Assembly (NCBI GenBank): GCA_963666305.1
Contig: OY762722.1
Span: 5,378,903 to 5,442,902, forward strand
DNA length: 64,000 nt
Direction of reading: 5' to 3'
From: Candidatus Poribacteria bacterium
GTDB taxonomy: Bacteria > Poribacteria > WGA-4E > WGA-3G
Shown here: positions 1 through 47,118 of the stretch, piece by piece
Numbering within the stretch: position 1 is the first letter of the stretch
Layout: every line of letters begins with the position of its first letter
Translations under genes and position numbers: made by a program
The notes under the pieces: generated by a model
Database searches by the model: none
What the model was told of the DNA's origin: nothing
Seen by the model: only the letters and a program-made list of their open reading frames with translations

Positions 1-600
1 GAACGTCATGAACTCGGTATCCTCGGCGGGAAGCAGGATCAATACGCCAGCGCAATCGGTGGAATTCATTTTATGGAGTTTCAGGGGGAAGAGGTGAAAA
101 CCTCACCACTGAAATTTCCACTACACATCCGTTGTGAACTTGAAAAGAACCTTGTCCTCTGTTATACCGGAAAGTCTCGCCTCTCTGGTAATATACATCA
201 AAATGTGACCGATGCTTATAAAAGCGGAGAACCGAGTGTTCGTGATGCCTTGGAAACCCTCAAAACCACCGCTGAGGCAACAAAAACAGCACTAATGCGC
301 GGTCACCTGACCGAATTCGGCGAACTTCTCACCCAAAATTGGCAGAATCAGAAAAGGTTACACCCCTCTGTCACAAATGAACAGATAGAATCCCTCTTTA
401 AAATTGCAATGACGCATGGCGCGATCGGTGGAAAAGCTTGTGGTGCCGGTGGTGGTGGATGTCTACTGTTTTACTGCGAACCTACACGTGAACATCGCGT
501 CCGTCAAAAACTTGAAGAAGCAGGCGCGCGGGTCATTGATGTGAACTTTGATTTTGACGGTCTCCAAATATGGAAGGCCTCAAGTGAAACAGCTACATAG
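1..600 (+). CDS. GHMP-family sugar kinase, C-terminal part (5' end outside window)
   Basis: Frame 1 is open from nt 1 (ERHELGILGGKQDQYASAIGG...) into listed ORF 73..600. The GGKQDQY and GAIGGKACGAGGGGCLLFY segments are GHMP-kinase-like. Confidence 0.7.
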   Translation, partial: ERHELGILGGKQDQYASAIGGIHFMEFQGEEVKTSPLKFPLHIRCELEKNLVLCYTGKSRLSGNIHQNVTDAYKSGEPSVRDALETLKTTAEATKTALMRGHLTEFGELLTQNWQNQKRLHPSVTNEQIESLFKIAMTHGAIGGKACGAGGGGCLLFYCEPTREHRVRQKLEEAGARVIDVNFDFDGLQIWKASSETAT

Positions 601-689
601 ACTCTTTATAACTGTTCATCTCTTCATTCTCCATTGAAATTAACCAAAAAATCATCGTGGAACGATGCCCATATTTAATAGTTTAAAAA

Positions 690-1709
690 ATGAAAAATGA
701 CATCTCAACGTCGCAGACCGGAACAGATATAGAAGCCGCCGAAGCCTTGAAAACGGCGAAGGAAAATATTTTAAACCAACTCAGAAAGCGAATCATTGGG
801 CAAGACGAAGTCATCGAGCAACTCCTTATCGCACTCTTTTCGCAGGGACACTGTTTGCTGGTAGGCGTGCCGGGATTAGCGAAAACACTGCTCATCAGCA
901 CCTTCGCGCGGATTCTGGAACTCCCTTTCAATCGAATCCAATTTACACCAGACCTGATGCCATCGGACATTATCGGCACCGATATTATTGAGGAAGGTGA
1001 GGCAGGGAAACGCGCTTTCCGCTTTATTAATGGACCGGTCTTTGCTAACATCGTCCTTGCTGATGAGATTAACCGAACACCCCCTAAAACGCAAGCCGCA
1101 CTCTTACAGGCAATGCAGGAGTACCAAGTCACCGCAGGCGGCAGAACTTATCCTTTGGAACGTCCGTTTTTTGTTTTAGCGACACAGAATCCGATCGAGC
1201 AGGAAGGCACCTATCCGCTACCCGAAGCGCAACTCGATCGATTCATGTTCCATATCACACTGGATTATCCCGATAAAACTGCCGAAAAAGAGATTGTGAT
1301 GACAACAACTGCGGCTTATGAACCTGAGATAGAACCTGTTATCACAGGAGAAGAAGTCTTGCGAATACAACAGGTCGTCCGAAAAGTGCCGATCGCCGAA
1401 GCAATTGTGGACTATGCAGTGGAATTGAACCGACAGACGCGACCTGCTTCAGATGCGCTCGATTTCATTCAGGATTGGGTGCAGTGGGGCGCAGGACCGC
1501 GGGCATCGCAATACCTCGTACTGGGAGCAAAGGCGCGTGCCATTCTTCAAGGACGCTATCATGTCAGTTATGAGGATATTAAGGCAGTCGCTGTACCTGT
1601 GCTACGCCACCGAATTTTGACGAATTTCAACGCCGAAGCTGATGGAATCACAAGCTTGGATATTATCAATAGACTGTTAGAAAATGTTCAGCCACCAGCA
1701 GTTCAATGA
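690..1709 (+). CDS. MoxR-like AAA+ ATPase
   Basis: 339 aa. Walker A GVPGLAKT, Walker B VLADEINR, and FFVLATQNPIEQEGTYPLPEAQLDRF and WGAGPRASQ blocks typical of MoxR/AAA_3. No DUF58/VWA partner gene follows. Confidence 0.9.
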   Translation: MKNDISTSQTGTDIEAAEALKTAKENILNQLRKRIIGQDEVIEQLLIALFSQGHCLLVGVPGLAKTLLISTFARILELPFNRIQFTPDLMPSDIIGTDIIEEGEAGKRAFRFINGPVFANIVLADEINRTPPKTQAALLQAMQEYQVTAGGRTYPLERPFFVLATQNPIEQEGTYPLPEAQLDRFMFHITLDYPDKTAEKEIVMTTTAAYEPEIEPVITGEEVLRIQQVVRKVPIAEAIVDYAVELNRQTRPASDALDFIQDWVQWGAGPRASQYLVLGAKARAILQGRYHVSYEDIKAVAVPVLRHRILTNFNAEADGITSLDIINRLLENVQPPAVQ

Positions 1710-1722
1710 ATGGAGGTTTCCT

Positions 1723-1882
1723 ATGCGTGCAATTGACGCTTTTAAAATGGATAAGGCAACGTTTTCTGTGCTATCCTCTTTTGAAGAAGCGGATGAAACT
1801 GATAAGGCATACTGGCACTCTAAGTCTTTCTTCGACCCGTTTGGAGGCACTCGAATTGATGCGGCAGATTAACTTTCAGTAA
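1723..1882 (+). pseudogene. small conserved hypothetical gene, apparently frameshifted and possibly 3'-truncated at the isrB locus
   Basis: RBS TGGAGG 1711-1716 and ATG 1723. The frame reads MRAIDAFKMDKATFSVLSSFEEADETDKAYWHSKS. The helix-like continuation STRLEALELMRQINFQ* lies in the +1 frame (stop 1880-1882), implying a 1-nt indel within TCTTTCTTC 1825-1833. This could be a sequencing error. Confidence 0.4.
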
Positions 1883-2083
1883 CTCCACACTAAAGCGTGG
1901 AGATTGTTAGAATATCGGTAGCCAGCCGGGACCCTAACAACGTGAGATACTGAATACAGTAATATATCGCGGACCTTGTGGTGGCACACAATAAGATGTT
2001 TCGGATGCTCCCCAAGTCTGATTCCTCTCTGGTGCCGTGATCTGGAAGGGGCAACATATAACCCGAAAGGGAGATTACAAACT
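1883..2083 (+). ncRNA. omegaRNA-like structured RNA candidate upstream of isrB (locus 1)
   Basis: Collinear conserved blocks shared with 40217-40414: TACAGTAATATATCG, TGTGGTGG, GGATnCTCCCC and GATCTGGAAGGGGCAA. Two stems carry compensatory changes: 1883-1902, and 1904-1910 paired with 1934-1940. Exact ends are unknown. Confidence 0.6.
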
Positions 2084-3130
2084 ATGTTTGTGCCTGTAAA
2101 GAGCAAAGACGATAAACACTTAATGCCAACAACACCTGTCCGAGCTGCCATGATGATCAAAAGTGGTGAAGCAACACCTTATTGGAATAACGGCATCTTC
2201 TGTATTAGACTTAACAGGGAACCGTCTGGACGCTACAAGCAAGAGATCGTTGTAGGCGTGGACCCCGGCAGTAAGAAAGAAGGTTTTACGGTTAAAAGTG
2301 CATCACATACTTACTTGAATGTGCAAGCGGATGCACACAATAATGTGGGCAAGAAGGTTGCGAAGCGTCGTGAACTTCGTAGAGTTAGAAGATCGCGTAA
2401 GTGTCCAAATAGAAAGAACCGCATGAATCGAATGGCTAACAAAGCACGCATACCCGCAGGCACACGCGCAAGGTGGGACTGGAAACTTCGTATCCTTGAT
2501 TGGTTGTCTAAGATGTATCCTATCACTCATATCTGTGTGGAGGACATTAAGGCGAGGACGATACAACGCGCACGGCGATGGAATCAGTCATTCAGTCCGC
2601 TTGAAGTCGGCAAAAACTGGTTCTATTCTGAAATAGAAAAGCGTTGGGTTCTTTTCAGGCTTTTGGGTCACAAGACGAAAAAGGCTCGCGACAGATTAGG
2701 TCTGAAGAAGTCGTCTAATAAGCTTGCTGAAACATTTGCTGCATATTGTGTAGATTCCTGGTGTTTAGCATATCACATAGTTGGTGGTGACCGCATAGTA
2801 GACAATACAGGTATTTTCTGTATATCGCCCATAACTATAGAACGGCGCAGTCTACACAGACAACTCCCACAGAAAGGGGGTAGGCGACCGCGGTATGGTG
2901 GCACAAGGTGTCTTGGCTTGGGTAAAGGCACGCTTGTAAAGCATATCAAGCATGGCTTGGCGGTGATATGTGGTAGAATGAACAAATACCTATGTTTACA
3001 ACCTGTAGAAGGTGGTAAACGCATCACCCGATCTGCGAAAGTGTCAGACTGCAAGATATTACGCGGACTTAACTTTAGATATAAACCTGTTGCTATACAT
3101 CAAAAACTACAAAAGGTATTGGTAACCTGA
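2084..3130 (+). CDS. isrB: IsrB-like RNA-guided nickase candidate (IscB homologue lacking HNH; RRXRR/PLMP-RuvC protein)
   Basis: 348 aa from ATG 2084 (MFVPV...). PLMP-type N-terminus (KHLMPTTPVRA), RuvC-I VGVDPGSKKEG, Arg-rich bridge helix KRRELRRVRRSRKCPNRKNR, RuvC-II ITHICVEDIKA, RuvC-III AAYCVDSWCLAYH. No HNH insert. The ORF-track extension to 1976 is non-coding leader. Confidence 0.75.
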   Translation: MFVPVKSKDDKHLMPTTPVRAAMMIKSGEATPYWNNGIFCIRLNREPSGRYKQEIVVGVDPGSKKEGFTVKSASHTYLNVQADAHNNVGKKVAKRRELRRVRRSRKCPNRKNRMNRMANKARIPAGTRARWDWKLRILDWLSKMYPITHICVEDIKARTIQRARRWNQSFSPLEVGKNWFYSEIEKRWVLFRLLGHKTKKARDRLGLKKSSNKLAETFAAYCVDSWCLAYHIVGGDRIVDNTGIFCISPITIERRSLHRQLPQKGGRRPRYGGTRCLGLGKGTLVKHIKHGLAVICGRMNKYLCLQPVEGGKRITRSAKVSDCKILRGLNFRYKPVAIHQKLQKVLVT

Positions 3131-3186
3131 ATGTGATACGAATTGTCCAAAACTTAGTATTTTTAATCTTCATACTGACTTTTTCA

Positions 3187-3215
3187 TTGACATTTCTTTT
3201 CAGAGATGTTATCAT
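3187..3215 (+). promoter_or_regulatory. sigma-70-type promoter for the AT-rich two-gene cassette
   Basis: TTGACA (3187-3192), 17-nt spacer, TATCAT (3210-3215), about 100 nt upstream of the 3319 start. Confidence 0.6.
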
Positions 3216-3318
3216 TATTATAACTGAATGTGATGCAGCGGGGTCCAGAGGAGGGTCTTGTTAACTTCACATCACTACTTAACCAACCAATACCCTCGTT
3301 TTTTAGAGGAAAGGAAAA

Positions 3319-3585
3319 ATGAAATTATGGCAAGATAAAGAAGTTGTGAACGCTCTGAGGCGTATTTTGGAAAGTTATAATTGCCTGGTGTATGATGAAG
3401 CAGGTTCACAACGGTTCGGGTGTCTATTAAGGGTTAGAGTCATCAAACCAAGTTCTGAAAACATCTCATCGATTATTGAAACGATTCGTCAAAAATTAAA
3501 GAAAGAAACCGGAAGGAGTTTTACCATGATAGGAGAAGCGAGTTCTACTTACAGCATAAGAGAGCATGTTTGTAGAAAGGAATGA
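3319..3585 (+). CDS. hypothetical protein (88 aa), first gene of AT-rich cassette
   Basis: GAGGAAAGGA RBS immediately upstream of the ATG; AT-rich; no family recognised. Confidence 0.55.
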   Translation: MKLWQDKEVVNALRRILESYNCLVYDEAGSQRFGCLLRVRVIKPSSENISSIIETIRQKLKKETGRSFTMIGEASSTYSIREHVCRKE

Positions 3586-3588
3586 ATT

Positions 3589-4194
3589 ATGATTGCTAAG
3601 GGATATAATCACCAAACTATACAACCATTACAACATCACAATACGATGTGGGACGACTTAATAGCACATTATGAACGCCAACCACCACAACCACCACAAC
3701 CGCTACAAAACATAAAGCCAACTCAACCGAAACAACAAGCCTCACCAGAAGATATAAAACGAAATCAATTTTGTGTTCAAGACTGCCAAAAGCAATACTC
3801 AAATAAAGAGATTCGGGTTCATTCTGTAGAAACTAATCGATTGATAATTCGAATCCAAGATAACACTAACATTTACAAGTCTATTATTTCGGTTTATTGC
3901 GCATCTTTATTTTTAAAACGTAAGAAACCTCACTACGAACCTCAATGGGTCTATGTAGATAAGGAAACATACGAGAAATATCATGCGGATATCTATCTTA
4001 GTTATGATCCATTTACATTTCAACCAGAGGGGTTTGCTATGCGAGGTCAATTATTCTTAACGGAACCGTTCGGTAGACCTGGTGTTTGGGTTTATGGAAT
4101 AATGCGTGCAGAACTTGACCGTAATATAGATCAATTATTTGATTTAAATTATTTATTGCAAAACTCACAACTTGAGTCAATTAGCTATGTTTGA
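3589..4194 (+). CDS. hypothetical protein (201 aa), second gene of AT-rich cassette
   Basis: ATG lies 3 nt after the upstream stop (coupled), with an AAAGGAA RBS. Q/P-rich N-terminal stretch (PPQPPQPLQ). A long ORF in stop-rich AT-rich DNA. No family recognised. Confidence 0.65.
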   Translation: MIAKGYNHQTIQPLQHHNTMWDDLIAHYERQPPQPPQPLQNIKPTQPKQQASPEDIKRNQFCVQDCQKQYSNKEIRVHSVETNRLIIRIQDNTNIYKSIISVYCASLFLKRKKPHYEPQWVYVDKETYEKYHADIYLSYDPFTFQPEGFAMRGQLFLTEPFGRPGVWVYGIMRAELDRNIDQLFDLNYLLQNSQLESISYV

Positions 4195-4203
4195 CTAACC
4201 GAT

Positions 4204-4241
4204 AAGGCGATGCACATTACCTATGCATCGCCTTGTTTTTT
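4204..4241 (+). terminator. rho-independent terminator after the cassette
   Basis: Stem AAGGCGATGCA / TGCATCGCCTT with a 9-nt loop, followed by GTTTTTT. Confidence 0.8.
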
Positions 4242-4426
4242 ATAAGAGAATGACAAAGACCTAATCCGACAGATTGTGCTACCAGCTGACTTCCATTGTG
4301 TAATTCTTATAAACTGAGACATTGATAACGACCATCGTAGTTGTGGTAATTTATGAACCACCCTCGATTAACCAAGAACTACCGTGAAACGTGGTGGAAC
4401 GATGGCCATATTTAATAATTTAAAAT

Positions 4427-5806
4427 ATGAAAATTGCAATTATAGGAACAGGATATGTTGGCTTGACCACGGCTGTGGTGCTGGCATATCTGAATCATGA
4501 TGTCGCTGCGGTGGACAAAGACGAGAGCAAACTAAACCTTTTGCACGAAGGAAAAAGTCCGATCCATGAACCCGGCATCCAAAATCTCCTTGAAGAGGTG
4601 CAACACACCATCCGTTTCACACCGAATGTCGCTGAAGTTGTACCGGAGGCAGAACTGATTCTGATTGCTGTGGGAACACCACCGAAGAAGAACGGTGAAG
4701 CGGATACGCAACATGTGGAACAAGCCACCAAAGAGGTTGCCCAAGTCTGTCTGCCTGATAGGCATTATACACTCGTTGTGAAATCGACAGTCCCGATAGG
4801 CACGAATCAGCGTGTCGCTGAAGTTGTGGAGGCGATATTTTCGGAACGTGGGCTTCGAGGGAACGTTTCCATCGCTTCAAATCCGGAATTTTTGCAAGAG
4901 GGGTTGGCGTTGCAAGGCGCGTTCTATCCGGATCGGATCGTCGTTGGTGCGAACAGCGATGAAGCGATTGATACCTTGCGTCGTCTCTATAAACCGATCC
5001 TCGAACAGACGTTTGATCCACCGAGCGAGTTTCCGCGTCCGTCTTCTTATCACCTACCACCAATGATGACAACGGATCCAAACAGTGCTGAGATGATTAA
5101 ATACGCCGCGAACACCTTCCTCGCGCTTAAAATTAGTTTTATCAATGAAATTGCGGGGCTCTGTGAGGAGGTTGAGGCAGACGTAACAGAAGTCGCCCGC
5201 GGTATCGGACTTGACGCACGTATTGGGAATCAATTTCTCCAAGCAGGTCTCGGATGGGGCGGCAGTTGTTATCCGAAAGATACCGCTGCTTTGTTAGGGG
5301 TTGCCGCGCAAACTGGATACGAAATGCCGATTACGGAAGCCGCGCGCACCGTCAACTTCCGCCAACGGGAGCGTGTCGTCGAAAAATTGCACAGCACATT
5401 AGGTACACTCAATGGCAAGACCATTGGTATCCTTGGGCTCGCCTTCAAACCAAACACCGATGACATTCGAGAAGCACCCGCACTTGACATTGTCCGTGAG
5501 CTGATTGCAGCGGGGGCAATCGTTCGGGCACACGATCCGATCGCTATTGTAAACGCACACCGCGCCTTAAGTGAGAACGGCGAAACTAACGATAACAAAG
5601 TGCTTTTCACGGAAGATGTATACGAACTCTCGGACGATGCCGACGCACTCGTGCTCGTTACCGAATGGGAACTCTATCACAAGCTTGAACTCCGTAGACT
5701 CGCCAAGCAGATGAAGACTCCGATCCTCATTGATGGACGCAACGTTTATTCTGCCGAAGAAGCGAGGGCTGCAGGTTTCCATTATATCGGAATCGGCAGA
5801 GCGTAA
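4427..5806 (+). CDS. ugd: UDP-glucose 6-dehydrogenase (nucleotide-sugar dehydrogenase family)
   Basis: 459 aa. Rossmann N-terminus MKIAIIGTGYVGL, catalytic-Cys block GWGGSCYPKD, C-terminal UDP-binding domain. Confidence 0.9.
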   Translation: MKIAIIGTGYVGLTTAVVLAYLNHDVAAVDKDESKLNLLHEGKSPIHEPGIQNLLEEVQHTIRFTPNVAEVVPEAELILIAVGTPPKKNGEADTQHVEQATKEVAQVCLPDRHYTLVVKSTVPIGTNQRVAEVVEAIFSERGLRGNVSIASNPEFLQEGLALQGAFYPDRIVVGANSDEAIDTLRRLYKPILEQTFDPPSEFPRPSSYHLPPMMTTDPNSAEMIKYAANTFLALKISFINEIAGLCEEVEADVTEVARGIGLDARIGNQFLQAGLGWGGSCYPKDTAALLGVAAQTGYEMPITEAARTVNFRQRERVVEKLHSTLGTLNGKTIGILGLAFKPNTDDIREAPALDIVRELIAAGAIVRAHDPIAIVNAHRALSENGETNDNKVLFTEDVYELSDDADALVLVTEWELYHKLELRRLAKQMKTPILIDGRNVYSAEEARAAGFHYIGIGRA

Positions 5807-5825
5807 ATCCTAAGTATCAAAAACG

Positions 5826-5914
5826 TTAGCCTGTAACGAAGTGGAGGGCGGGTTTAAGGAACGTACGTGATAACTCTGGCGCACGTTGTTTAACCGCAAG
5901 GTAAAATTAAAAAT
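5826..5914 (+). repeat. diverged copy (C) of the ~88-nt leader motif
   Basis: Shares the 5' block TAGCCTGyAAC...GGCGGGT and the 3' block AACCGCAAGGwAwAATTAAAAAT with 35681-35768 and 50659-50748, at similar length. Confidence 0.45.
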
Positions 5915-6034
5915 CCTGAACCTTTTGATGTCAATTGGCAGCGATATTGTCCGAAAAAGCCGTTTCCGCCGTATCGCCATATACCGGGTGTCACACCGCA
6001 TCCGATTCGCGATCCACTTGGGCACAGTTACGGA

Positions 6035-6466
6035 GTGGAAGAAGATCATGATGCTGAACCCTTGTCGCCAAAAATGTGGAGACAGAACGAAGATTACCTG
6101 TACGGTGTGGATCTCTACAATTTTGCCTACTGGTGGGAGGCACATGAAGCGTGGGAAGGGTTGTGGCACCGAGCGGAAGACACGTATCGCTTGTTCCTTC
6201 AAGGGTTAATTCAGGTGTCGGCAGCCTTCATCAAGTATCATACACGGATGCTGCGTCCGCTATGCACGCTTTCTACTGCGGGACGCGATAAATTGCGACA
6301 GGTTGTCGTTGAATGTGACGACGCATCGGGAAATTACATGGGACTCAACCTACCAGCGTTTTTGGACACTGCCGACGCGTTTTTCGATCCGTTCTTTGAC
6401 GACACCGTTACGGAAGCCACCTTTCGTAGAGACTCTGTTAAGCCACTCATACTGTTGATGGATTAG
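6035..6466 (+). CDS. DUF309-like protein (N-terminus probably extends upstream; see findings)
   Basis: YNFAYWWEAHEAWEGLW matches the DUF309 signature as I recall it. The family-like PFPPYRHIPGVTPHP segment lies in frame upstream of the GTG at 6035 with no canonical start. Confidence 0.6.
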   Translation: MEEDHDAEPLSPKMWRQNEDYLYGVDLYNFAYWWEAHEAWEGLWHRAEDTYRLFLQGLIQVSAAFIKYHTRMLRPLCTLSTAGRDKLRQVVVECDDASGNYMGLNLPAFLDTADAFFDPFFDDTVTEATFRRDSVKPLILLMD

Positions 6467-6659
6467 CGAGTTGTCTTGGTTATTTTCACACTTGGCGCGA
6501 ATTTAATCTCTGCAGAATGCAAGCAGTATTGCAACATGGGTCCCCACCCGCGTAAGGGCGAGGCTACATCGCTCCTACAGGAACAAGGGCAACGCGGCAC
6601 TGATACCAAGCCCGTTGTTAGATCGATAATGCTGTTTTACGCTTGGCGCGAGGTTAAAA

Positions 6660-6938
6660 ATGTCTTTTCTCTTTTTCAGCCTCTTCTGTGTCTTCATCGT
6701 CGTGTTGCTGGTTGTTCTCTTCAAGGTAGGTGCCTATTTTGGCAAAAGCGATGCCGATGAATTTCGTGCGGTTCGGTGTCCACAATGTCAAACCCGACGG
6801 AAACCCGAAAAGACTGGGACTGTCAGAAACCTTGTTGAACTTGAGATGCGCTGCCCGCGTTGCGGATATATCTCATGGGATGTTCCGCCGAAAACGAATC
6901 TTTCCACACGGCCCACGGATCGGGACAACTCACTATAA
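6660..6938 (+). CDS. small membrane-anchored zinc-ribbon protein, hypothetical
   Basis: 92 aa. Hydrophobic N-terminus FLFFSLFCVFIVVLLVVLF, then CPQC...CPRC. Confidence 0.45.
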   Translation: MSFLFFSLFCVFIVVLLVVLFKVGAYFGKSDADEFRAVRCPQCQTRRKPEKTGTVRNLVELEMRCPRCGYISWDVPPKTNLSTRPTDRDNSL

Positions 6939-6947
6939 GGACTGCAG

Positions 6948-8072
6948 CTAATAATCGGCGAAAGCCCCGTCGTCTGAGTGCCAAAACATTCCACGCAACC
7001 GAAACGTCTCATCTCGAACCGCTTCAATGGCGGCATCGTCCATATCCACACCGAGTCCGGGAGTTGTTGGGAGTTCAATGAACCCATCTTTGAACACCAA
7101 AGGTGTCGAAAATAGCCCTTCTCCGCGTCGGTGTCCACCCTCGCATATCAGCAAATTCGGCACAGTCGCCATTACATGTACCGATGCTGCGACACCGATG
7201 GGACCGGCGGCGTTGTGCGGCGCGACCGCCATATTGTGAATCTCTGCCATCGCTGAAATCTTTTTCAGTTCCAGTATCCCACCACAGTGCCGAATATCCG
7301 GTTGCAAAATCGCGCACATCTCGCGTTCAATTATCTCTCGGAAACCCCAGCGTGTCAAATGTCGTTCACCGGTCGCGATCGGCACCGTCGTTGACTGAGA
7401 CAGTGCCAGTAATGGTTCATTGTTTTCTGGATGACACGGTTCTTCAGCGAACAGCAATCGGAATGGTTCTAATTCTTTCACTACAATCATCGCCATCGTC
7501 GGGCTTAACCGACGATGCAAGTCAACAGCGATGTCCACCTCATCACCTACTGCTGTTCGTACTGCCGCTACCCGCGCCACCATCGTATCAATTGCCCTCG
7601 GTGTGTCCACGAACCGGACAGGTTGTGACGAAGCACCCATTTTCACAGCACGGAATCCGCCTGCAACTGCTTTTCTGGCACTCTCTGCACACGCCTCCGG
7701 TGTAGTGCCGCCGATACCCGTATAGACACGGATCCGCTTACGCACTGAACCTCCCAACAGTTTCCATACCGGCATCCCGACGACTTTACCGAATACATCC
7801 CACATCGCCATCTCAATACCGCTCAGCGCACCGACCAACACGGGCATACCCCGGCTATAACTTGACCGGTACATCGCCTGCCAATGGTCTTCAATCTGTA
7901 GCGGATCTTTGCCAACGAGGTATTCAGCCATGTCGTCCACGGCTTGAGCGACAACGCGCCAATGCTCGTAGTTCATGGGTTCACCGTAGCCGATGATCCC
8001 TGCATCGGTGAACATTTTCAGCACCATTGCGCGACCTTGAATCGGTATTGTTTCAAATCCAGTAATCTTCAT
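6948..8072 (-). CDS. enolase-superfamily dehydratase (D-galactonate dehydratase-like)
   Basis: MKITGFETIP...GIIGYGEP...GIEMAMWDVFGKVVGMPVWKLLGG is typical of the MR/MLE DgoD-like subgroup. Start chosen at the MKITGF Met (8072), which abuts the upstream gene end at 8083. Confidence 0.85.
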   Translation of the reverse strand: MKITGFETIPIQGRAMVLKMFTDAGIIGYGEPMNYEHWRVVAQAVDDMAEYLVGKDPLQIEDHWQAMYRSSYSRGMPVLVGALSGIEMAMWDVFGKVVGMPVWKLLGGSVRKRIRVYTGIGGTTPEACAESARKAVAGGFRAVKMGASSQPVRFVDTPRAIDTMVARVAAVRTAVGDEVDIAVDLHRRLSPTMAMIVVKELEPFRLLFAEEPCHPENNEPLLALSQSTTVPIATGERHLTRWGFREIIEREMCAILQPDIRHCGGILELKKISAMAEIHNMAVAPHNAAGPIGVAASVHVMATVPNLLICEGGHRRGEGLFSTPLVFKDGFIELPTTPGLGVDMDDAAIEAVRDETFRLRGMFWHSDDGAFADY

Positions 8073-8082
8073 AGTTATAGTC

Positions 8083-9147
8083 CTAAACCGGTCGCCACCG
8101 GATGACACAGAAGTGTGAGTTTCCCGTGGCGTTCTCCCATTTGCTAACATCACCGTAGCAAGAGCCGATGAAGGTTAGTATCTCTTCGCCGTCCAAGCTA
8201 ATGTGTCGTGGGAAACCAGCGACATGTCCGTGACAGAGATAATAGACCTCGTCGGACCAACTTTCACCGTTGTCGTCGCTTATCATTGCTCTGCCACTAC
8301 CGAGTTCGCGTGGATAACGGTGATCGTATGCTGCAACGGCGCGACCATTGGAAAGTCCGACCGCTGCCCCATGGCATTGTCCATGCACACTGGTCAGTTG
8401 ACGGAGGTTTGTCCATGTGGCACCGTTGTCCACCGAATCGGCGAGGAAAACGGTTTTGTTTGTGTGGGGTTGATCTGGCGGTCCCGGCTGATACCGAATG
8501 ACAGCGAGTAATCTTCCCGGAAAAAGTTCTGTAATGTTGACTTCGTTGCCGTAGTCCGACAAGAAAAAGCGGTTCGAGAAGGTGTGTCCGTCATCGTCGG
8601 AAACGAAAACATAAGTCGGATTCGTGCCTTCGTAAAACGGATCGTCCCGTCTTTTAATCGGTAGTAGGAGTGTCCCATCGCTAAGTCGAGTCAAGCTTGA
8701 ACCGGCGACGGTTTTCTGAAATGGCGCGACATCTATTTCGCTCGTCTGCTCCCACGTTTGACCTTCATCATCGGACAGCCAGACAGTGATTGCCGATTCT
8801 TCGCCCTGTTGACTCACGTTGATGAGTTGTCCGTGATTATTGGCTTGCAACAACCACCCGTTGAAACCGGAAGCAGACGGATCCGTGCTAAGATGTTCCC
8901 AACTCTTGCCGCCATCTGCAGACTTGGAGATGAGGGTCTGTTGTACTGCATAGATAGTGCTGTCCGGAGTCAGAACGAGATTCAACCCTTGGTAATGCGC
9001 ATGCGGGTCCAAGGGCATACGGATTTTCTCCACTGGAACTTTGTTCAGCACACTATCGCGAGCGTGTAGGATGTAGTCGTCCGCTTGCATCTCGCCTAAT
9101 TGACTTGGAGTGACGACAACGCCTCCTATGTTTTCGGTTGATAGCAT
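8083..9147 (-). CDS. BNR/Asp-box repeat protein (sialidase-like beta-propeller)
   Basis: Five Asp-box motifs: SADGGKSW, SDDEGQTW, SDDDGHTF, SVDNGATW, SDDNGESW. Confidence 0.8.
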   Translation of the reverse strand: MLSTENIGGVVVTPSQLGEMQADDYILHARDSVLNKVPVEKIRMPLDPHAHYQGLNLVLTPDSTIYAVQQTLISKSADGGKSWEHLSTDPSASGFNGWLLQANNHGQLINVSQQGEESAITVWLSDDEGQTWEQTSEIDVAPFQKTVAGSSLTRLSDGTLLLPIKRRDDPFYEGTNPTYVFVSDDDGHTFSNRFFLSDYGNEVNITELFPGRLLAVIRYQPGPPDQPHTNKTVFLADSVDNGATWTNLRQLTSVHGQCHGAAVGLSNGRAVAAYDHRYPRELGSGRAMISDDNGESWSDEVYYLCHGHVAGFPRHISLDGEEILTFIGSCYGDVSKWENATGNSHFCVIRWRPV

Positions 9148-41478: not shown

Positions 41479-42945
41479 ATGGAGTCGTATCAAGTCAGAG
41501 AAAAAATGGTTGCCGATAAATTGCGACCGAAATACCACTTTTTACCGCCATACGGTCGTTGGAATGACATCAATGGTGCAATCTTCTTCAACCGTAGATA
41601 CCACCTCGGCTACCTACAAAAAATCAGAAATGGTCCCGATGAGAGAGACTTTTCGAGTTGGCAACACATTTCGAGTCGGGATCTGTTGCATTGGACGTAT
41701 CATACTGCGTACCTTGACGAACCACTCGAAGGGAAGAAAGGCGATTATTTCAATAGCGGTGACATCATGGATGGGATGGAAATTCCGACGATTATCACCA
41801 ACATGCCCAGAAGAGGAATCTGTATTTATCAATGCCACGATGCCGATCTCTCACACTGGACACCATTGGCAGAAAATCCAGTGATTCCAATCGATACGGA
41901 CAAATTCCCTGAATGCGTGATCTTCGATCCAAGTGGCTGGAAAGAGGGTGACACCTATTACGCCCTAATCGGCAATAAAAACCATCGTCTCGGCTACGAA
42001 GGCGATTCGACAAGCCTGTTTAAGTCGAAAGACCTCAAGCAGTGGAGTTACATCGGTCCCTTCTATAAATCCTCGCGCAGATGGACAGCAGAGGTTGAAG
42101 ATTGCGCCTGTTCTGACTTCTTCCGCTTTGGGGAGAAATGGATGCTGCTGATGCACACTCATCATCCCTTTAACAAGTGCCAGTATTACATTGGACACTA
42201 TGAAAATGAGACCTTCTATCCCGAAATTAACGGACAACTTAGCCATCGCGGCAGTATACTCTCCGGTCCCGAAACCCTCATTGATGATAAGGGCAGACGC
42301 CTTTTTTGGGGATGGATCGGCGATGCCCGCGACGCAGACCCATATGGCTGGCAGAGCATTATGACGCTGCCGTGGCACATGAAACCAACATCGGATAACC
42401 ATCTGAATATCGAACCGGCTTCAGAATTACAATCCTTGAGATACAATCCATTTCAAGTCGGAGATCTGTTTTTAGAAGCGGGGCAAGAGATCACTGTTGA
42501 CGGGCTTGCTTCGGATTGTATGGAATTGAAACTGACGATAGAACCACATTCCGCGGAGCGATTTGGGTTAAAACTGTTCTGTTCGCCAGATCTTGGGGAA
42601 GAGACGGTGATTCGTTACGATGCGAAACAGCAAGCTTTTGTTGTCGATTTTGAAAATGCGAGTACCGACAAAACGCTTTCATACCGGTGTGGACGTGAGG
42701 TGCTGGAATCTGGACGGTTCAAGCAAACCGTGCCCTTCGCACTCGGAAACGACCAAGCACTTGAACTTGATATTTTCGTTGACAGATCGGTAATTGAAAT
42801 TTTTGTCAACGCTGAGGTGTGCATTGTCCAGCGGGTCTATCCGATGCGTCCCGACAGCAGAGAGGTGCGACTTTTTTGCGAAGATGGGCGGATTGCAGTT
42901 AGAAATATCATCAAATGGGAGATGGACGCAACCAATCCTTGGTAA
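41479..42945 (+). CDS. glycoside hydrolase family 32 (beta-fructofuranosidase/levanase-like)
   Basis: RPKYHFLPPYGRWNDINGAIFFNRRYHLGYLQ corresponds to the GH32 WMNDPNG block, followed by beta-propeller and C-terminal beta-sandwich layout. The start is uncertain (41431, 41479 or 41506). Confidence 0.75.
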   Translation: MESYQVREKMVADKLRPKYHFLPPYGRWNDINGAIFFNRRYHLGYLQKIRNGPDERDFSSWQHISSRDLLHWTYHTAYLDEPLEGKKGDYFNSGDIMDGMEIPTIITNMPRRGICIYQCHDADLSHWTPLAENPVIPIDTDKFPECVIFDPSGWKEGDTYYALIGNKNHRLGYEGDSTSLFKSKDLKQWSYIGPFYKSSRRWTAEVEDCACSDFFRFGEKWMLLMHTHHPFNKCQYYIGHYENETFYPEINGQLSHRGSILSGPETLIDDKGRRLFWGWIGDARDADPYGWQSIMTLPWHMKPTSDNHLNIEPASELQSLRYNPFQVGDLFLEAGQEITVDGLASDCMELKLTIEPHSAERFGLKLFCSPDLGEETVIRYDAKQQAFVVDFENASTDKTLSYRCGREVLESGRFKQTVPFALGNDQALELDIFVDRSVIEIFVNAEVCIVQRVYPMRPDSREVRLFCEDGRIAVRNIIKWEMDATNPW

Positions 42946-45779: not shown

Positions 45780-45960
45780 GAGTTAATGACGGATCCGTCG
45801 ATATACTCTGGTGCGACCTAAAGATGTCTATGCTATCACCGATTATTCGTAGATTTCGCGCTGGAACGGTCAGTCAATGTACCCAAGCTTAAAGACTTGG
45901 GCTTGTTAAAAAACAAGCCTATCGGTCTACCGATAAGTTTCTCGTTTCACAGAGGTTGGC
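45780..45960 (-). ncRNA. TnpB-associated omega/reRNA candidate (3' end of tnpB and downstream)
   Basis: Three consecutive hairpins on the minus strand: TATCGG/CCGATA (45920-45935, spanning the stop codon), GGCTTGTT/AACAAGCC (45900-45919) and CCCAAG/CTTGGG (45882-45901). The extent is inferred from known TnpB biology. Confidence 0.45.
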
Positions 45961-47118
45961 AACCCAACGCTCTCCACGATGGGCGCAAGCCGCCCTGAGA
46001 AGTATGTTTATCGCAGCATTGTGGTCTCGGTCTAACGAAGTGCCACAAGACTGACAATCAAAGGTTCGTATCGCAAGAGAGAGTTTCCTTTGCGATTTCT
46101 CACCACAAGCCGAGCACGTTTGCGAGGTATTCTTAGGATCAACTTGGTGGAAGTGCAAGCCGTCTCTTTCGGCTATGCTCGCACACCACTCAAAGAATGT
46201 CCCCCAAGACGCATCGGCAATGCTTTTGCTGAGGAGTTTGTTCTTTACCATGTTAGATACGCGTAAGTCCTCTGCCACTAAGACATTGTTTTCCTGATGG
46301 TGGTAGAGTTTATAGACGAGTTTGCCGATAAAGTCTTTGCGTTTGTTAGTAGTGCGTTCATGGTGTAAGGCGGTTGCATGCACGGCTTCCCGCCAGCGAT
46401 TGCTCCCTTTTTTCCGGCGCGCCAGGGTCTGATTGTGTTTATGGAGCAAGCCTTCTGCTTTGCGATACCAGCGCGGGTTGTCCTCTGTTTCACCTTCAGA
46501 GGTGGTGAGATAGTGGGTCGTGCCAACGTCAACTGCAACAGCGGCAGTCGGTTCAACTTTCGGCGTATCGGGTATCTCACAGGAGATATGGGCATACCAA
46601 CCTGAGGCTTTCTTGACGATCGTGACTTCTTTCGGGTCACCTTGTAAGGGGCGGTGCATGCGTATCTTGACTTCGCCTAACTTTGGCACTTTTAAGCGGT
46701 TGTGCCTAAAATCGGTGGCTATGATCGGATTTTGGCGGACACGTTGACCTGTTTTGAGGGTGTGCTTTCGCAAGCACCACGTCAGAGAACGGACACGCAT
46801 TTTGAAGCGAGGATACCCTTTTTTTTCAGCACCCTCCTCACAACGTCTACGGAACGCATCAAAGGCTTTGTCAACACGTTTGAGGATAGAAACTTGAAAG
46901 TCTTGAGGCACTTCACGGAAATCGTCATATTTCTCACGAGCAACTTTCAAAAGCTGTTCTTGGTCATATCGCGAAACAAAACGTCCTTCTGCTTCGTGCG
47001 CAAACTTGCGATTGTTACGCGCAGAATTCTGGAGTTCACACAAGTGGGCAAACCACTCTAAGAGTGTTCTTTCTTCTTCCGGCGTTGGATAAATAGGATA
47101 TTTAAATGTTATTCTCAT
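45919..47118 (-). CDS. tnpB: TnpB (IS605 OrfB-family RNA-guided endonuclease)
   Basis: 399 aa. N-terminal MRITFKYPIYPTPEEERTL, RuvC D (VAVDVGTTHY), E (LVAEDLRVSNM), zinc finger CSACG...CQSCG and DRDHNAAINI. Confidence 0.9.
   Translation of the reverse strand: MRITFKYPIYPTPEEERTLLEWFAHLCELQNSARNNRKFAHEAEGRFVSRYDQEQLLKVAREKYDDFREVPQDFQVSILKRVDKAFDAFRRRCEEGAEKKGYPRFKMRVRSLTWCLRKHTLKTGQRVRQNPIIATDFRHNRLKVPKLGEVKIRMHRPLQGDPKEVTIVKKASGWYAHISCEIPDTPKVEPTAAVAVDVGTTHYLTTSEGETEDNPRWYRKAEGLLHKHNQTLARRKKGSNRWREAVHATALHHERTTNKRKDFIGKLVYKLYHHQENNVLVAEDLRVSNMVKNKLLSKSIADASWGTFFEWCASIAERDGLHFHQVDPKNTSQTCSACGEKSQRKLSLAIRTFDCQSCGTSLDRDHNAAINILLRAACAHRGERWVANLCETRNLSVDR

Follow-up and report, generated by a model that had tools for sequence, protein, structure and literature searches.

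What is encoded by a 348-aa open reading frame (ORF) near one end of a 64-kb stretch of Candidatus Poribacteria DNA (contig OY762722.1; hereafter the window), and is it still at work? The ORF (locus 1; window 2084-3130, plus strand), from a bacterium that lives as a sponge symbiont, had been proposed on the basis of its motifs to be an IsrB, i.e. an HNH-less relative of the RNA-guided nuclease IscB, and to be probably active. We compared it with the best 80 of 279 related loci found in species-representative genomes, and with occupied and unoccupied alleles of the same chromosomal site. Judged by sequence and predicted fold, locus 1 is a genuine IsrB gene and belongs to an already known kind of element (IsrB/ISC1). 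The reading that we consider likely is a non-autonomous ISC1-type OMEGA element, composed of IsrB and its omegaRNA, that has been immobilised and, carrying an H221Y substitution, is most likely deficient in nicking.

The identity of the gene follows from four tests that agree: sequence, predicted fold, the absence of HNH and a covarying omegaRNA upstream. Every motif quoted in the original prediction was found, in the order given (Table 1), and the profile and structure comparisons that it proposed were both carried out. The Pfam family RRXRR (PF14239) matched residues 3-157 (E = 3.6e-29), and the top PDB sequence match was the IsrB of Desulfovirgula thermocuniculi (DtIsrB, 8DMB_P; E = 4.9e-36, residues 3-341), a match raised to E = 1.9e-87 by a family profile; such scores greatly exceed what chance would produce. 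The match to the HNH-less 8DMB was full-length, whereas IscB profiles covered the N-terminal half only; NCBIfam guided_IscB gave 80.5 bits against a cutoff of 175, over residues 5-156, as expected for a protein without HNH. The 67 residues that separate E153 from position 221 include one His and no Cys, therefore no HNH-like insert, and no HNH domain was matched in Pfam, as had been claimed. A Cas9d profile matched at E = 0.015, far below its cutoff, and no CRISPR repeat array was found in window positions 1-9000. The search returned 2606 database homologues at E <= 1e-5, which were unnamed or labelled ‘hypothetical’ or ‘RRXRR domain-containing’, just as the original prediction had anticipated.

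An initial AlphaFold2 (AF2) model, made from a shallow alignment of relatives with at least 67% identity, was discarded (predicted local distance difference test, pLDDT, 58.6). A diverse alignment (a representative search of 1.84 billion proteins, 1131 clusters at E <= 0.001) produced a model with pLDDT 90.6 and a predicted template modelling score (pTM) of 0.87, for which the first Foldseek match in the PDB was again 8DMB (E = 6.5e-28; template modelling scores 0.79/0.83; root-mean-square deviation 3.3 Å), followed by IscB structures at ∼1e-17 to 1e-18 and then by RuvC resolvases and Cas12f. The domain limits listed in Table 1 combine the secondary structure of the AF2 model with the published domain map of DtIsrB (Hirano et al. 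2022, PMC9581776) and are approximate. The two proteins, 30% identical over their full length and alike in size (∼350 aa), share the order PLMP, split RuvC with bridge helix, short linkers in place of REC and HNH, and TAM-interacting (TI) domain, where TAM is the target-adjacent motif. IscB (OgeuIscB 7XHT/7UTN) and Cas9 have the same PLMP/RuvC/bridge-helix/TI scaffold and RuvC D/E/H/D tetrad; IsrB, however, has no HNH or REC lobe and would nick rather than cut both strands. Within the modelled TI domain, R313 aligns with Dt R323 and R316 with Dt Q326; the TAM-reading Arg is thus common to both, while Dt Q326 is Arg at locus 1. Among related loci the residue at the Dt-Q326 position varied with the 4-mer flanking the element (Gln with ATGA in 16/16 loci; Phe mostly with ATAA/ATAG), a correlation that is only suggestive.

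Across the 80 loci, conservation upstream of the ORF begins abruptly at 1875, 208 nt before the ATG, and the sequences farther upstream are unrelated. No Rfam family, HEARO included, matched this region at gathering or relaxed thresholds, and the omegaRNA was therefore modelled de novo. RNAalifold analysis of 47 non-redundant upstream regions gave compensatory changes in 24 of 32 pairs, and the resulting covariance model scored 207.7 bits at locus 1 and 188.7 bits at a second IsrB copy in the window (copy 2). For 87 distinct model-aligned sequences, 97.0% of cells were paired, which was reached by none of 500 shuffles, and the covariation score was 0.535 versus <=0.069 for slid controls. Further covarying columns added stem S1, the region of stem-loop 2 (SL2) and two pseudoknots, for an extended structure of 57 pairs (92.9% paired, 38/57 covarying, both pseudoknots included). 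Pseudoknot 1 joins the SL2 loop (GCCA) to the SL4 loop (UGGC), and pseudoknot 2 (PK2) joins the SL5 loop (CCCCA) to UGGGG just before the last hairpin. Every helix is intact at locus 1, where S1 has changed from the family's GTCAAT/GTTGAC to TTCAGTA/TACTGAA.

The DtIsrB scaffold measures 262 nt versus ∼208 nt here, and locus 1 is without SL3, SL6 and SL8; the pseudoknots of DtIsrB belong to group B1, whereas those of locus 1 (SL2-SL4, and SL5 with the strand preceding SL7) are of group A. Both carry the Shine-Dalgarno sequence in the last omegaRNA hairpin. By topology only, the locus 1 RNA can be likened to the group A omegaRNAs of CsIsrB, K2IsrB and BbIsrB (Hirano et al. 2022, PMC9581776), which have the same SL2-SL4 and SL5-nexus pseudoknots; BbIsrB also lacks SL3, and the TAM of group A IsrBs tolerates G at position 4 (cf. 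the ATGG described below). Length variants of the scaffold were seen as well: three related loci (L025, L069, L054) have an extra hairpin-like insert of ∼45 nt before the Shine-Dalgarno, in the 3′ part of the omegaRNA, and L081 is longer by an insert of ∼23 nt in mid-scaffold. An extra insertion of this kind may be the counterpart of SL8, an optional hairpin present in DtIsrB.

The point of insertion was read from unoccupied alleles. L082, the closest relative of the window, has the order GHMP kinase, MoxR, small gene, UDP-glucose dehydrogenase (UDPGDH), with 11 nt between the last two genes, and is ∼95.6% identical to the window up to 1874 and again from 4410. Its unoccupied site reads ...GCAGATTAACT/ATGGCTAC... 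(a slash marks the insertion point), and the element is inserted at ...AACT/ATGG, that is N/ATGG, in the 3′ portion of a conserved gene of 72 aa. The broken small gene that had been noticed upstream is what remains of it, and its family (70-72 aa, Poribacteria) includes intact homologues such as P0121-P0137; the AT-rich stretch with two ORFs that had been noticed downstream was found as well. No target-site duplication is present at 1874/1875, and unoccupied alleles read ...AACT/ATGG or ...AACT/ATGA. From the insertion point it follows that the 20 nt just outside the left transposon end would be the guide, ATGG its TAM and the unoccupied allele a natural target, the guide length of 20 nt being assumed by analogy with DtIsrB. 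The predicted target, ATTGATGCGGCAGATTAACT plus ATGG/ATGA, is matched at 20/20 positions with ATGG in L105 and L106, and with one mismatch each in L082 and L091, with ATGG and ATGA, respectively; no other match to the guide was found within the 64-kb window.

At most loci of the family a nested hairpin with a CTAAAG loop, the same loop as in SL1, lies just past the ORF; GAAGA(N2-5)G comes next, and conservation stops after an adjoining ATGA. The 4-mer flanking the element was ATGA (53 loci), ATAA (8) or ATAG (5). Copy 2 follows the family pattern in every respect. The family 5′ terminus is GTCA... or TTCAG..., the latter in the locus 1 subgroup, and the locus 1 left end, TTCAGTAAC plus CTCCACAC-TAAAG-CGTGGAG at 1875-1902, contains a hairpin common to the 80 loci and a TnpB element. 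Family ends and flanks agree with those of ISC1 (HNH-less IscB1, e.g. ISC1-1_MA), which is non-autonomous, has a 5′-GTCA terminus and subterminal hairpins and targets N/ATGA without duplication (Kapitonov et al. 2016, PMC4810608). They agree also with the measured IsrB TAMs, NTGA/TTGA/NTG/NTGG, the NTGA/NTG type of DtIsrB among them (PMC9581776). None of the 80 loci has a Y1 transposase or other recurrent gene within 3 kb; the original observation that no transposase lies nearby thus holds for locus 1 and for its relatives.

The other end of the element has been lost. The window was compared with a composite of L081 (85% aa identity, with an intact hairpin and ...GAATTTG/ATGA) and the L104 flank. 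Of the right end, locus 1 has kept just the terminal ...CCTGAATGTG; measured against L081, the closest intact relative, it is short of ∼70 nt, among them the hairpin with the CTAAAG loop. Alignment to L082 and the IsrB-less L104 shows that the TAM flank has gone from ATGGCTACGA to AT-ACGA, with ATGG now AT-AC. The right-end hairpin is kept in copy 2 and at least 53 related loci and is missing in all occupied alleles of this site, L098 having a different, larger deletion. With the hairpin gone, a Y1 transposase has no right-end substrate, and the decay of the TAM flank adds to this; the element is therefore probably fixed in place. Locus 1, which differs from ISC1 in this loss as well as in starting with TTCAG rather than GTCA, thus appears immobile and unable to act as a mobile IS200/IS605-type element.

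Three other delimitations were considered and rejected. A second CTGAATGTGATG (3225-3236) as the true 3′ end, or a 2.5-kb composite transposon with cargo, is contradicted by the IsrB-less alleles L104 and L105, which carry the AT-rich cassette, its leader and the motif after an intact small gene. No CTAAAG hairpin exists at the far edge of the island (∼4409), where a canonical right end was sought. The sharp increase in identity that sets in 25 nt before the left end, considered as a conversion tract, reflects conserved coding sequence in every allele, the unoccupied ones included.

The question of activity turns on the catalytic site. All 122 sequences of an alignment (locus 1, copy 2, DtIsrB and 119 close homologues) have D60, E153 and D224, and the RuvC triad was thus correctly described as intact. 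The RuvC site of OgeuIscB is nevertheless a tetrad, D61/E193/H340/D343, arranged as in Cas9 and with a catalytic role for the His (PMC9640706). The corresponding position 221, the His of H-x-x-D, is paired by profile alignments with ‘tHanD’ of DtIsrB and ‘tHmnD’ of TbaIscB; 121 of the 122 sequences have His there, and locus 1 alone has Tyr, the result of a single C to T change that turned CAT into TAT. Diverse representatives covering the position have His in 103/117 and Gln in 5/117, the remainder being mostly fragments. All orthologous copies at the same site (L086, L092-L101) have His221, and with L098 as outgroup the substitution maps to the window's own branch. It bears on activity, not on descent. 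With Tyr in place of the catalytic His and with the right-end hairpin and TAM flank gone, the assessment ‘probably active’ is not supported: nicking by locus 1 has probably been lost or much reduced. Binding of RNA and of target DNA may have been retained, given that no omegaRNA helix is damaged and that the protein is otherwise intact. The His221 orthologues are presumably functional.

Several observations weigh against this reading. The five diverse relatives with Gln221 have the rest of the site intact, so that His may not be absolutely required, and the Tyr codon is known from a single assembly only. The two most recent branches show 5 nonsynonymous:6 synonymous and 7:2 changes, and constraint on isrB may have been relaxed lately. 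PK2 at locus 1 has an A.A mismatch in its terminal pair, the sole blemish in the RNA, and both the guide length and the omegaRNA 5′ end are put where the conservation boundary suggests.

The mechanism, which is established for the family and which we propose for locus 1, would run as follows. The omegaRNA would be transcribed from upstream, probably by read-through of the same-strand MoxR/small-gene operon, so that its 5′ 20 nt would be supplied by the flanking gene, and its 208-nt scaffold would fold compactly with two pseudoknots and bind IsrB. The complex would recognise the unoccupied form of its own insertion site through the guide match and then the TAM (ATGG/ATGA), and the RuvC site would nick the non-target strand; nicking that is directed by the guide, depends on a TAM and falls 8-11 nt upstream of it has been described (PMC9581776). 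The nick would favour re-copying of the element via homologous recombination. After insertion the element lost ∼70 nt of its right end, and the adjoining TAM flank decayed; in this genome only, His221 has mutated to Tyr. OMEGA nucleases cut vacant donor sites, and homing-like retention has been shown for TnpB and IscB (Meers et al., bioRxiv 10.1101/2023.03.14.532601). In that system, as here, the guide is the flank, the TAM is common to insertion site and nuclease, and the unoccupied allele is the target; however, the nuclease there protects a transposon still excised by TnpA, whereas locus 1 is not excisable, and any benefit would therefore come from converting unoccupied alleles in other genomes.

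Such conversion could explain how the occupied allele persists and spreads after the loss of its right end; it would then be a transposase-independent homing allele that nicks unoccupied alleles met via DNA exchange and triggers gene conversion like a homing endonuclease gene, the H221Y copy being a recent dead end. The population pattern speaks for this. Between the window allele (W) and L086, synonymous divergence (dS) was 0.045 for IsrB and 0.34 for UDPGDH (0.23 and 0.40 for two ORFs of the downstream cassette); between W and L097/L098 it was 0.18 for IsrB versus 0.98 for MoxR and 1.09 for UDPGDH (cassette ORFs, 0.19 and 0.31), and between L086 and L098 it was 0.16 versus 1.17 for UDPGDH (cassette ORFs, 0.15 and 0.15). 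The contrasts between IsrB and its flanks were significant (Fisher p 1e-11 to 1e-29), and as IsrB is far less diverged than the flanking host genes, the occupied allele must have moved between lineages by recombination, carrying a hairpin-less insertion at one and the same site. L082, nearest to the window by host genes (UDPGDH 97.1% nt identity), is unoccupied, and more distant genomes are occupied; the perfectly targetable unoccupied L106 comes from the same metagenome (ERZ25067264) as the occupied L086. Furthermore, the ratio of nonsynonymous to synonymous divergence (dN/dS) of IsrB was 0.13-0.14 in deep comparisons (33-37 synonymous differences), and homing-like retention after donor-joint cleavage has experimental precedent (Meers et al., bioRxiv 10.1101/2023.03.14.532601). 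The same dS discordance would nevertheless arise if an accessory allele were exchanged by ordinary homologous recombination, with no IsrB activity involved; nicks trigger recombination less strongly than double-strand breaks do, and only three independent occupied lineages were sampled. The right-end loss, moreover, may be ancestral to every occupied allele or may have arisen more than once (the L098 deletion differs and is larger), and the signal of purifying selection could therefore in part be older than the immobilisation. We therefore regard homing without transposition as possible but unlikely. If true, it would document, in natural populations, OMEGA homing that needs no transposition, with the H221Y copy as a freshly inactivated instance.

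At the other extreme, the locus may be a neutral relic, a decaying fossil without current function in any lineage whose intact ORFs merely reflect recent origin. The lost right end, degraded TAM flank and H221Y would all be expected of a relic, as would the nonsynonymous changes on the terminal branches and the dN/dS of 0.40 for W vs L086. Against this, isrB has no stop or frameshift in any occupied allele, all omegaRNA helices are kept (W and L086 differ at 5 of 208 nt), and the low dN/dS over the deep comparisons indicates that IsrB was under constraint during much of the history of the occupied allele, with the His221 orthologues under purifying selection. An inert relic is thus a doubtful explanation. 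Still less can be said for an intact, active nickase in a still-mobile transposon, as first envisaged: the ORF with D60, E153 and D224, the intact omegaRNA and the few natural relatives that tolerate Gln221 are compatible with it, but a Tyr found in the locus 1 copy only, the deleted hairpin and degraded TAM flank, and the lack of a Y1 transposase within 3 kb here and at the 80 related loci make it improbable. Domestication as a nuclease-dead RNA-guided DNA binder with a host gene under its control, in the manner of the TldR repressors derived from TnpB, would suit the replaced His, the intact-looking RNA-binding and TAM-reading parts and the immobilised element, but is very improbable, given that the substitution is private to one genome while all orthologues have His, that the guide matches only its own flank within the window, that no TAM follows the guide at the occupied site, and that there is no sign of a retargeted guide.

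Table 1. Features of locus 1, its flanks and copy 2. Positions are those of the window unless given as residues of the locus 1 protein; SL, stem-loop.
Feature	Position	Strand	Remarks
5′ remnant of conserved 72-aa Poribacteria gene	1723-1874	+	frameshift near 1828 in this genome
Predicted 20-nt guide	1855-1874	+	ATTGATGCGGCAGATTAACT; flanking DNA just outside left transposon end
omegaRNA scaffold (element left end)	1875-2083	+	∼208 nt
S1	1875-1881 with 1948-1954		terminal stem
SL1	1883-1902		left-end hairpin
SL2	1904-1940		loop GCCA 1921-1924
S2	1957-1959 with 2042-2044		
S3	1966-1973 with 2034-2041		
SL4	1977-1990		loop UGGC 1982-1985
SL5	2001-2021		loop CCCCA 2010-2014
PK2 partner strand	2047-2051		
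SL7	2062-2073		last hairpin; Shine-Dalgarno GGGAG 2069-2073
isrB ORF	2084-3130	+	ATG at 2084, stop ends 3130, 348 aa
Motif MFVPV	residues 1-5		
PLMP domain	residues 1 to ∼54		four strands and a helix, pLDDT >= 95; aligns to Dt PLMP region
Motif HLMP	residues 12-15		PLMP domain
Motif GVDPGSKKEG	residues 58-67		RuvC-I, D60
Split RuvC	D60, E153, Y221, D224		
Bridge helix	residues ∼88-106		modelled helix; aligns to Dt bridge helix
Arg-rich motif of bridge helix	residues 95-106		RRELRRVRRSRK
Motif CVEDIKA	residues 151-157		RuvC-II, E153
Short linker replacing HNH	residues ∼158-176		
Motif YCVDSWCLA	residues 221-229		RuvC-III, D224
Codon 221	2744-2746	+	TAT (Tyr); CAT to TAT, C to T at 2744
TI domain	residues ∼281-334		beta-rich 283-334 modelled, pLDDT ∼96
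Right-end remnant	3117-3136	+	only terminal ...CCTGAATGTG left
Degraded 3′ end of 72-aa gene, former TAM flank	3137-3176	+	internal deletions; ends at old stop region ...ACTGA
AT-rich cassette	3171-4409	+	GC 32-40%
Promoter-like TTGACA-17-TATCAT	3187-3215	+	strong, in cassette leader
Cassette ORFa	3319-3585	+	88 aa
Cassette ORFb	3589-4194	+	201 aa; CAACCACCA repeat at 3679-3701 encoding PPQ repeats
Terminator-like hairpin and T-run	∼4205-4240		
Copy 2 guide	40189-40208	+	
Copy 2 IsrB element	40209-41467	+	68% aa identity to locus 1, intact
Copy 2 omegaRNA/left end	40209-40414	+	188.7 bits
Copy 2 ORF	40415-41437	+	D/E/H/D intact; Gln at Dt-Q326 position
Copy 2 right-end hairpin	41411-41467	+	
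Copy 2 TAM	41468-41471	+	ATGA

The interval between the 72-aa gene and UDPGDH is a hotspot of structural variation among alleles L082-L106. It measures 11 nt in L082 and holds an unrelated 390-nt filler beside a truncated small gene in L088-L090, the cassette only in L104, the cassette and an extra 105-aa ORF in L102/L103, and a 1.5-kb insertion in L105, which has a left-end-like hairpin in its small-gene region (L105 1714-1767, 23.2 bits). The cassette and its leader directly follow an intact small gene, with no IsrB, in L104, L102/L103 and L105/L106; the cassette, which occurs with or without IsrB, is not cargo of the IsrB element. ORFa and ORFb (dN/dS 0.4-0.66) had no significant match in Pfam, PADLOC or PHROGs. 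ORFa is represented by only 13 clusters in 5.8 billion proteins, and those matches whose context was examined (P0395, P0397, P0401, with P0402 placed indirectly) lie at the same Poribacteria site.

Other mobile elements and repeats were observed in the window and in related alleles. The GH32 gene adjoining copy 2 has its longest ORF starting at 41431; since this falls inside the copy 2 right end, the real start is probably a later Met near 41482 (MESYQ...). A 399-aa TnpB (OrfB_IS605 and Cas12f1-like TNB) is encoded antisense in its element (ORF 45919-47118, minus strand; window 45869-47118), and the element end at 45873 (GTCAATGTACCCAAGCTTAAAGACTTGGGCTTG) has the same hairpin as the IsrB left ends, scoring 22.5 bits with the omegaRNA model. 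Such sharing of termini between ISC and IS605B elements with antisense TnpB was described by Kapitonov et al. 2016 (PMC4810608), and the example at ∼45873-47118 fits that description. Near the same site, just downstream of the DUF309 gene, L102 (7352-8273) and L103 (7299-8248) carry an autonomous-looking IS605 unit, a 137-aa Y1_Tnp followed by TnpB, and Poribacteria therefore do encode Y1 transposases; we make no claim for this TnpA-TnpB pair as a trans-mobiliser, as its end hairpin differs and the omegaRNA model finds no match in it. Lastly, the intergenic region that follows the DUF309 gene contains a 23-nt direct repeat, TTTCACACTTGGCGCGAATTTAA, at 6484-6506 and 6635-6657; the copies lie 151 nt apart, the second being 83% identical.

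The appropriate annotation is IsrB (OMEGA RNA-guided nickase family), accompanied by an omegaRNA upstream and by the caveat that locus 1 has Tyr at the catalytic His position and no right end. As a source of tools, the family is of interest for its compact omegaRNA scaffold (∼208 nt), with a topology backed by covariation and a TAM backed by genomic flanks. Among the copies, the ORF of locus 1 holds the least promise of activity, and copy 2 (40209-41467) or the His221 orthologues would be a better choice.

What this case adds to IsrB/ISC1 is the expansion in Poribacteria, the compact, covariation-defined group A omegaRNA and a naturally polymorphic insertion site. The IsrB family is greatly expanded in Candidatus Poribacteria: the best 80 of the 279 related loci were all from Poribacteria, often several per chromosome (at least 6 of the 80 kept loci on one), and the 64-kb window alone holds two IsrB copies and one TnpB. 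No description of this expansion, nor any co-mention, was found in the full-text literature searched, and it is apparently undescribed so far. The occupied, unoccupied and cassette-only alleles present in public metagenomes offer a tractable natural case for examining whether allele conversion in wild populations is driven by OMEGA nucleases.

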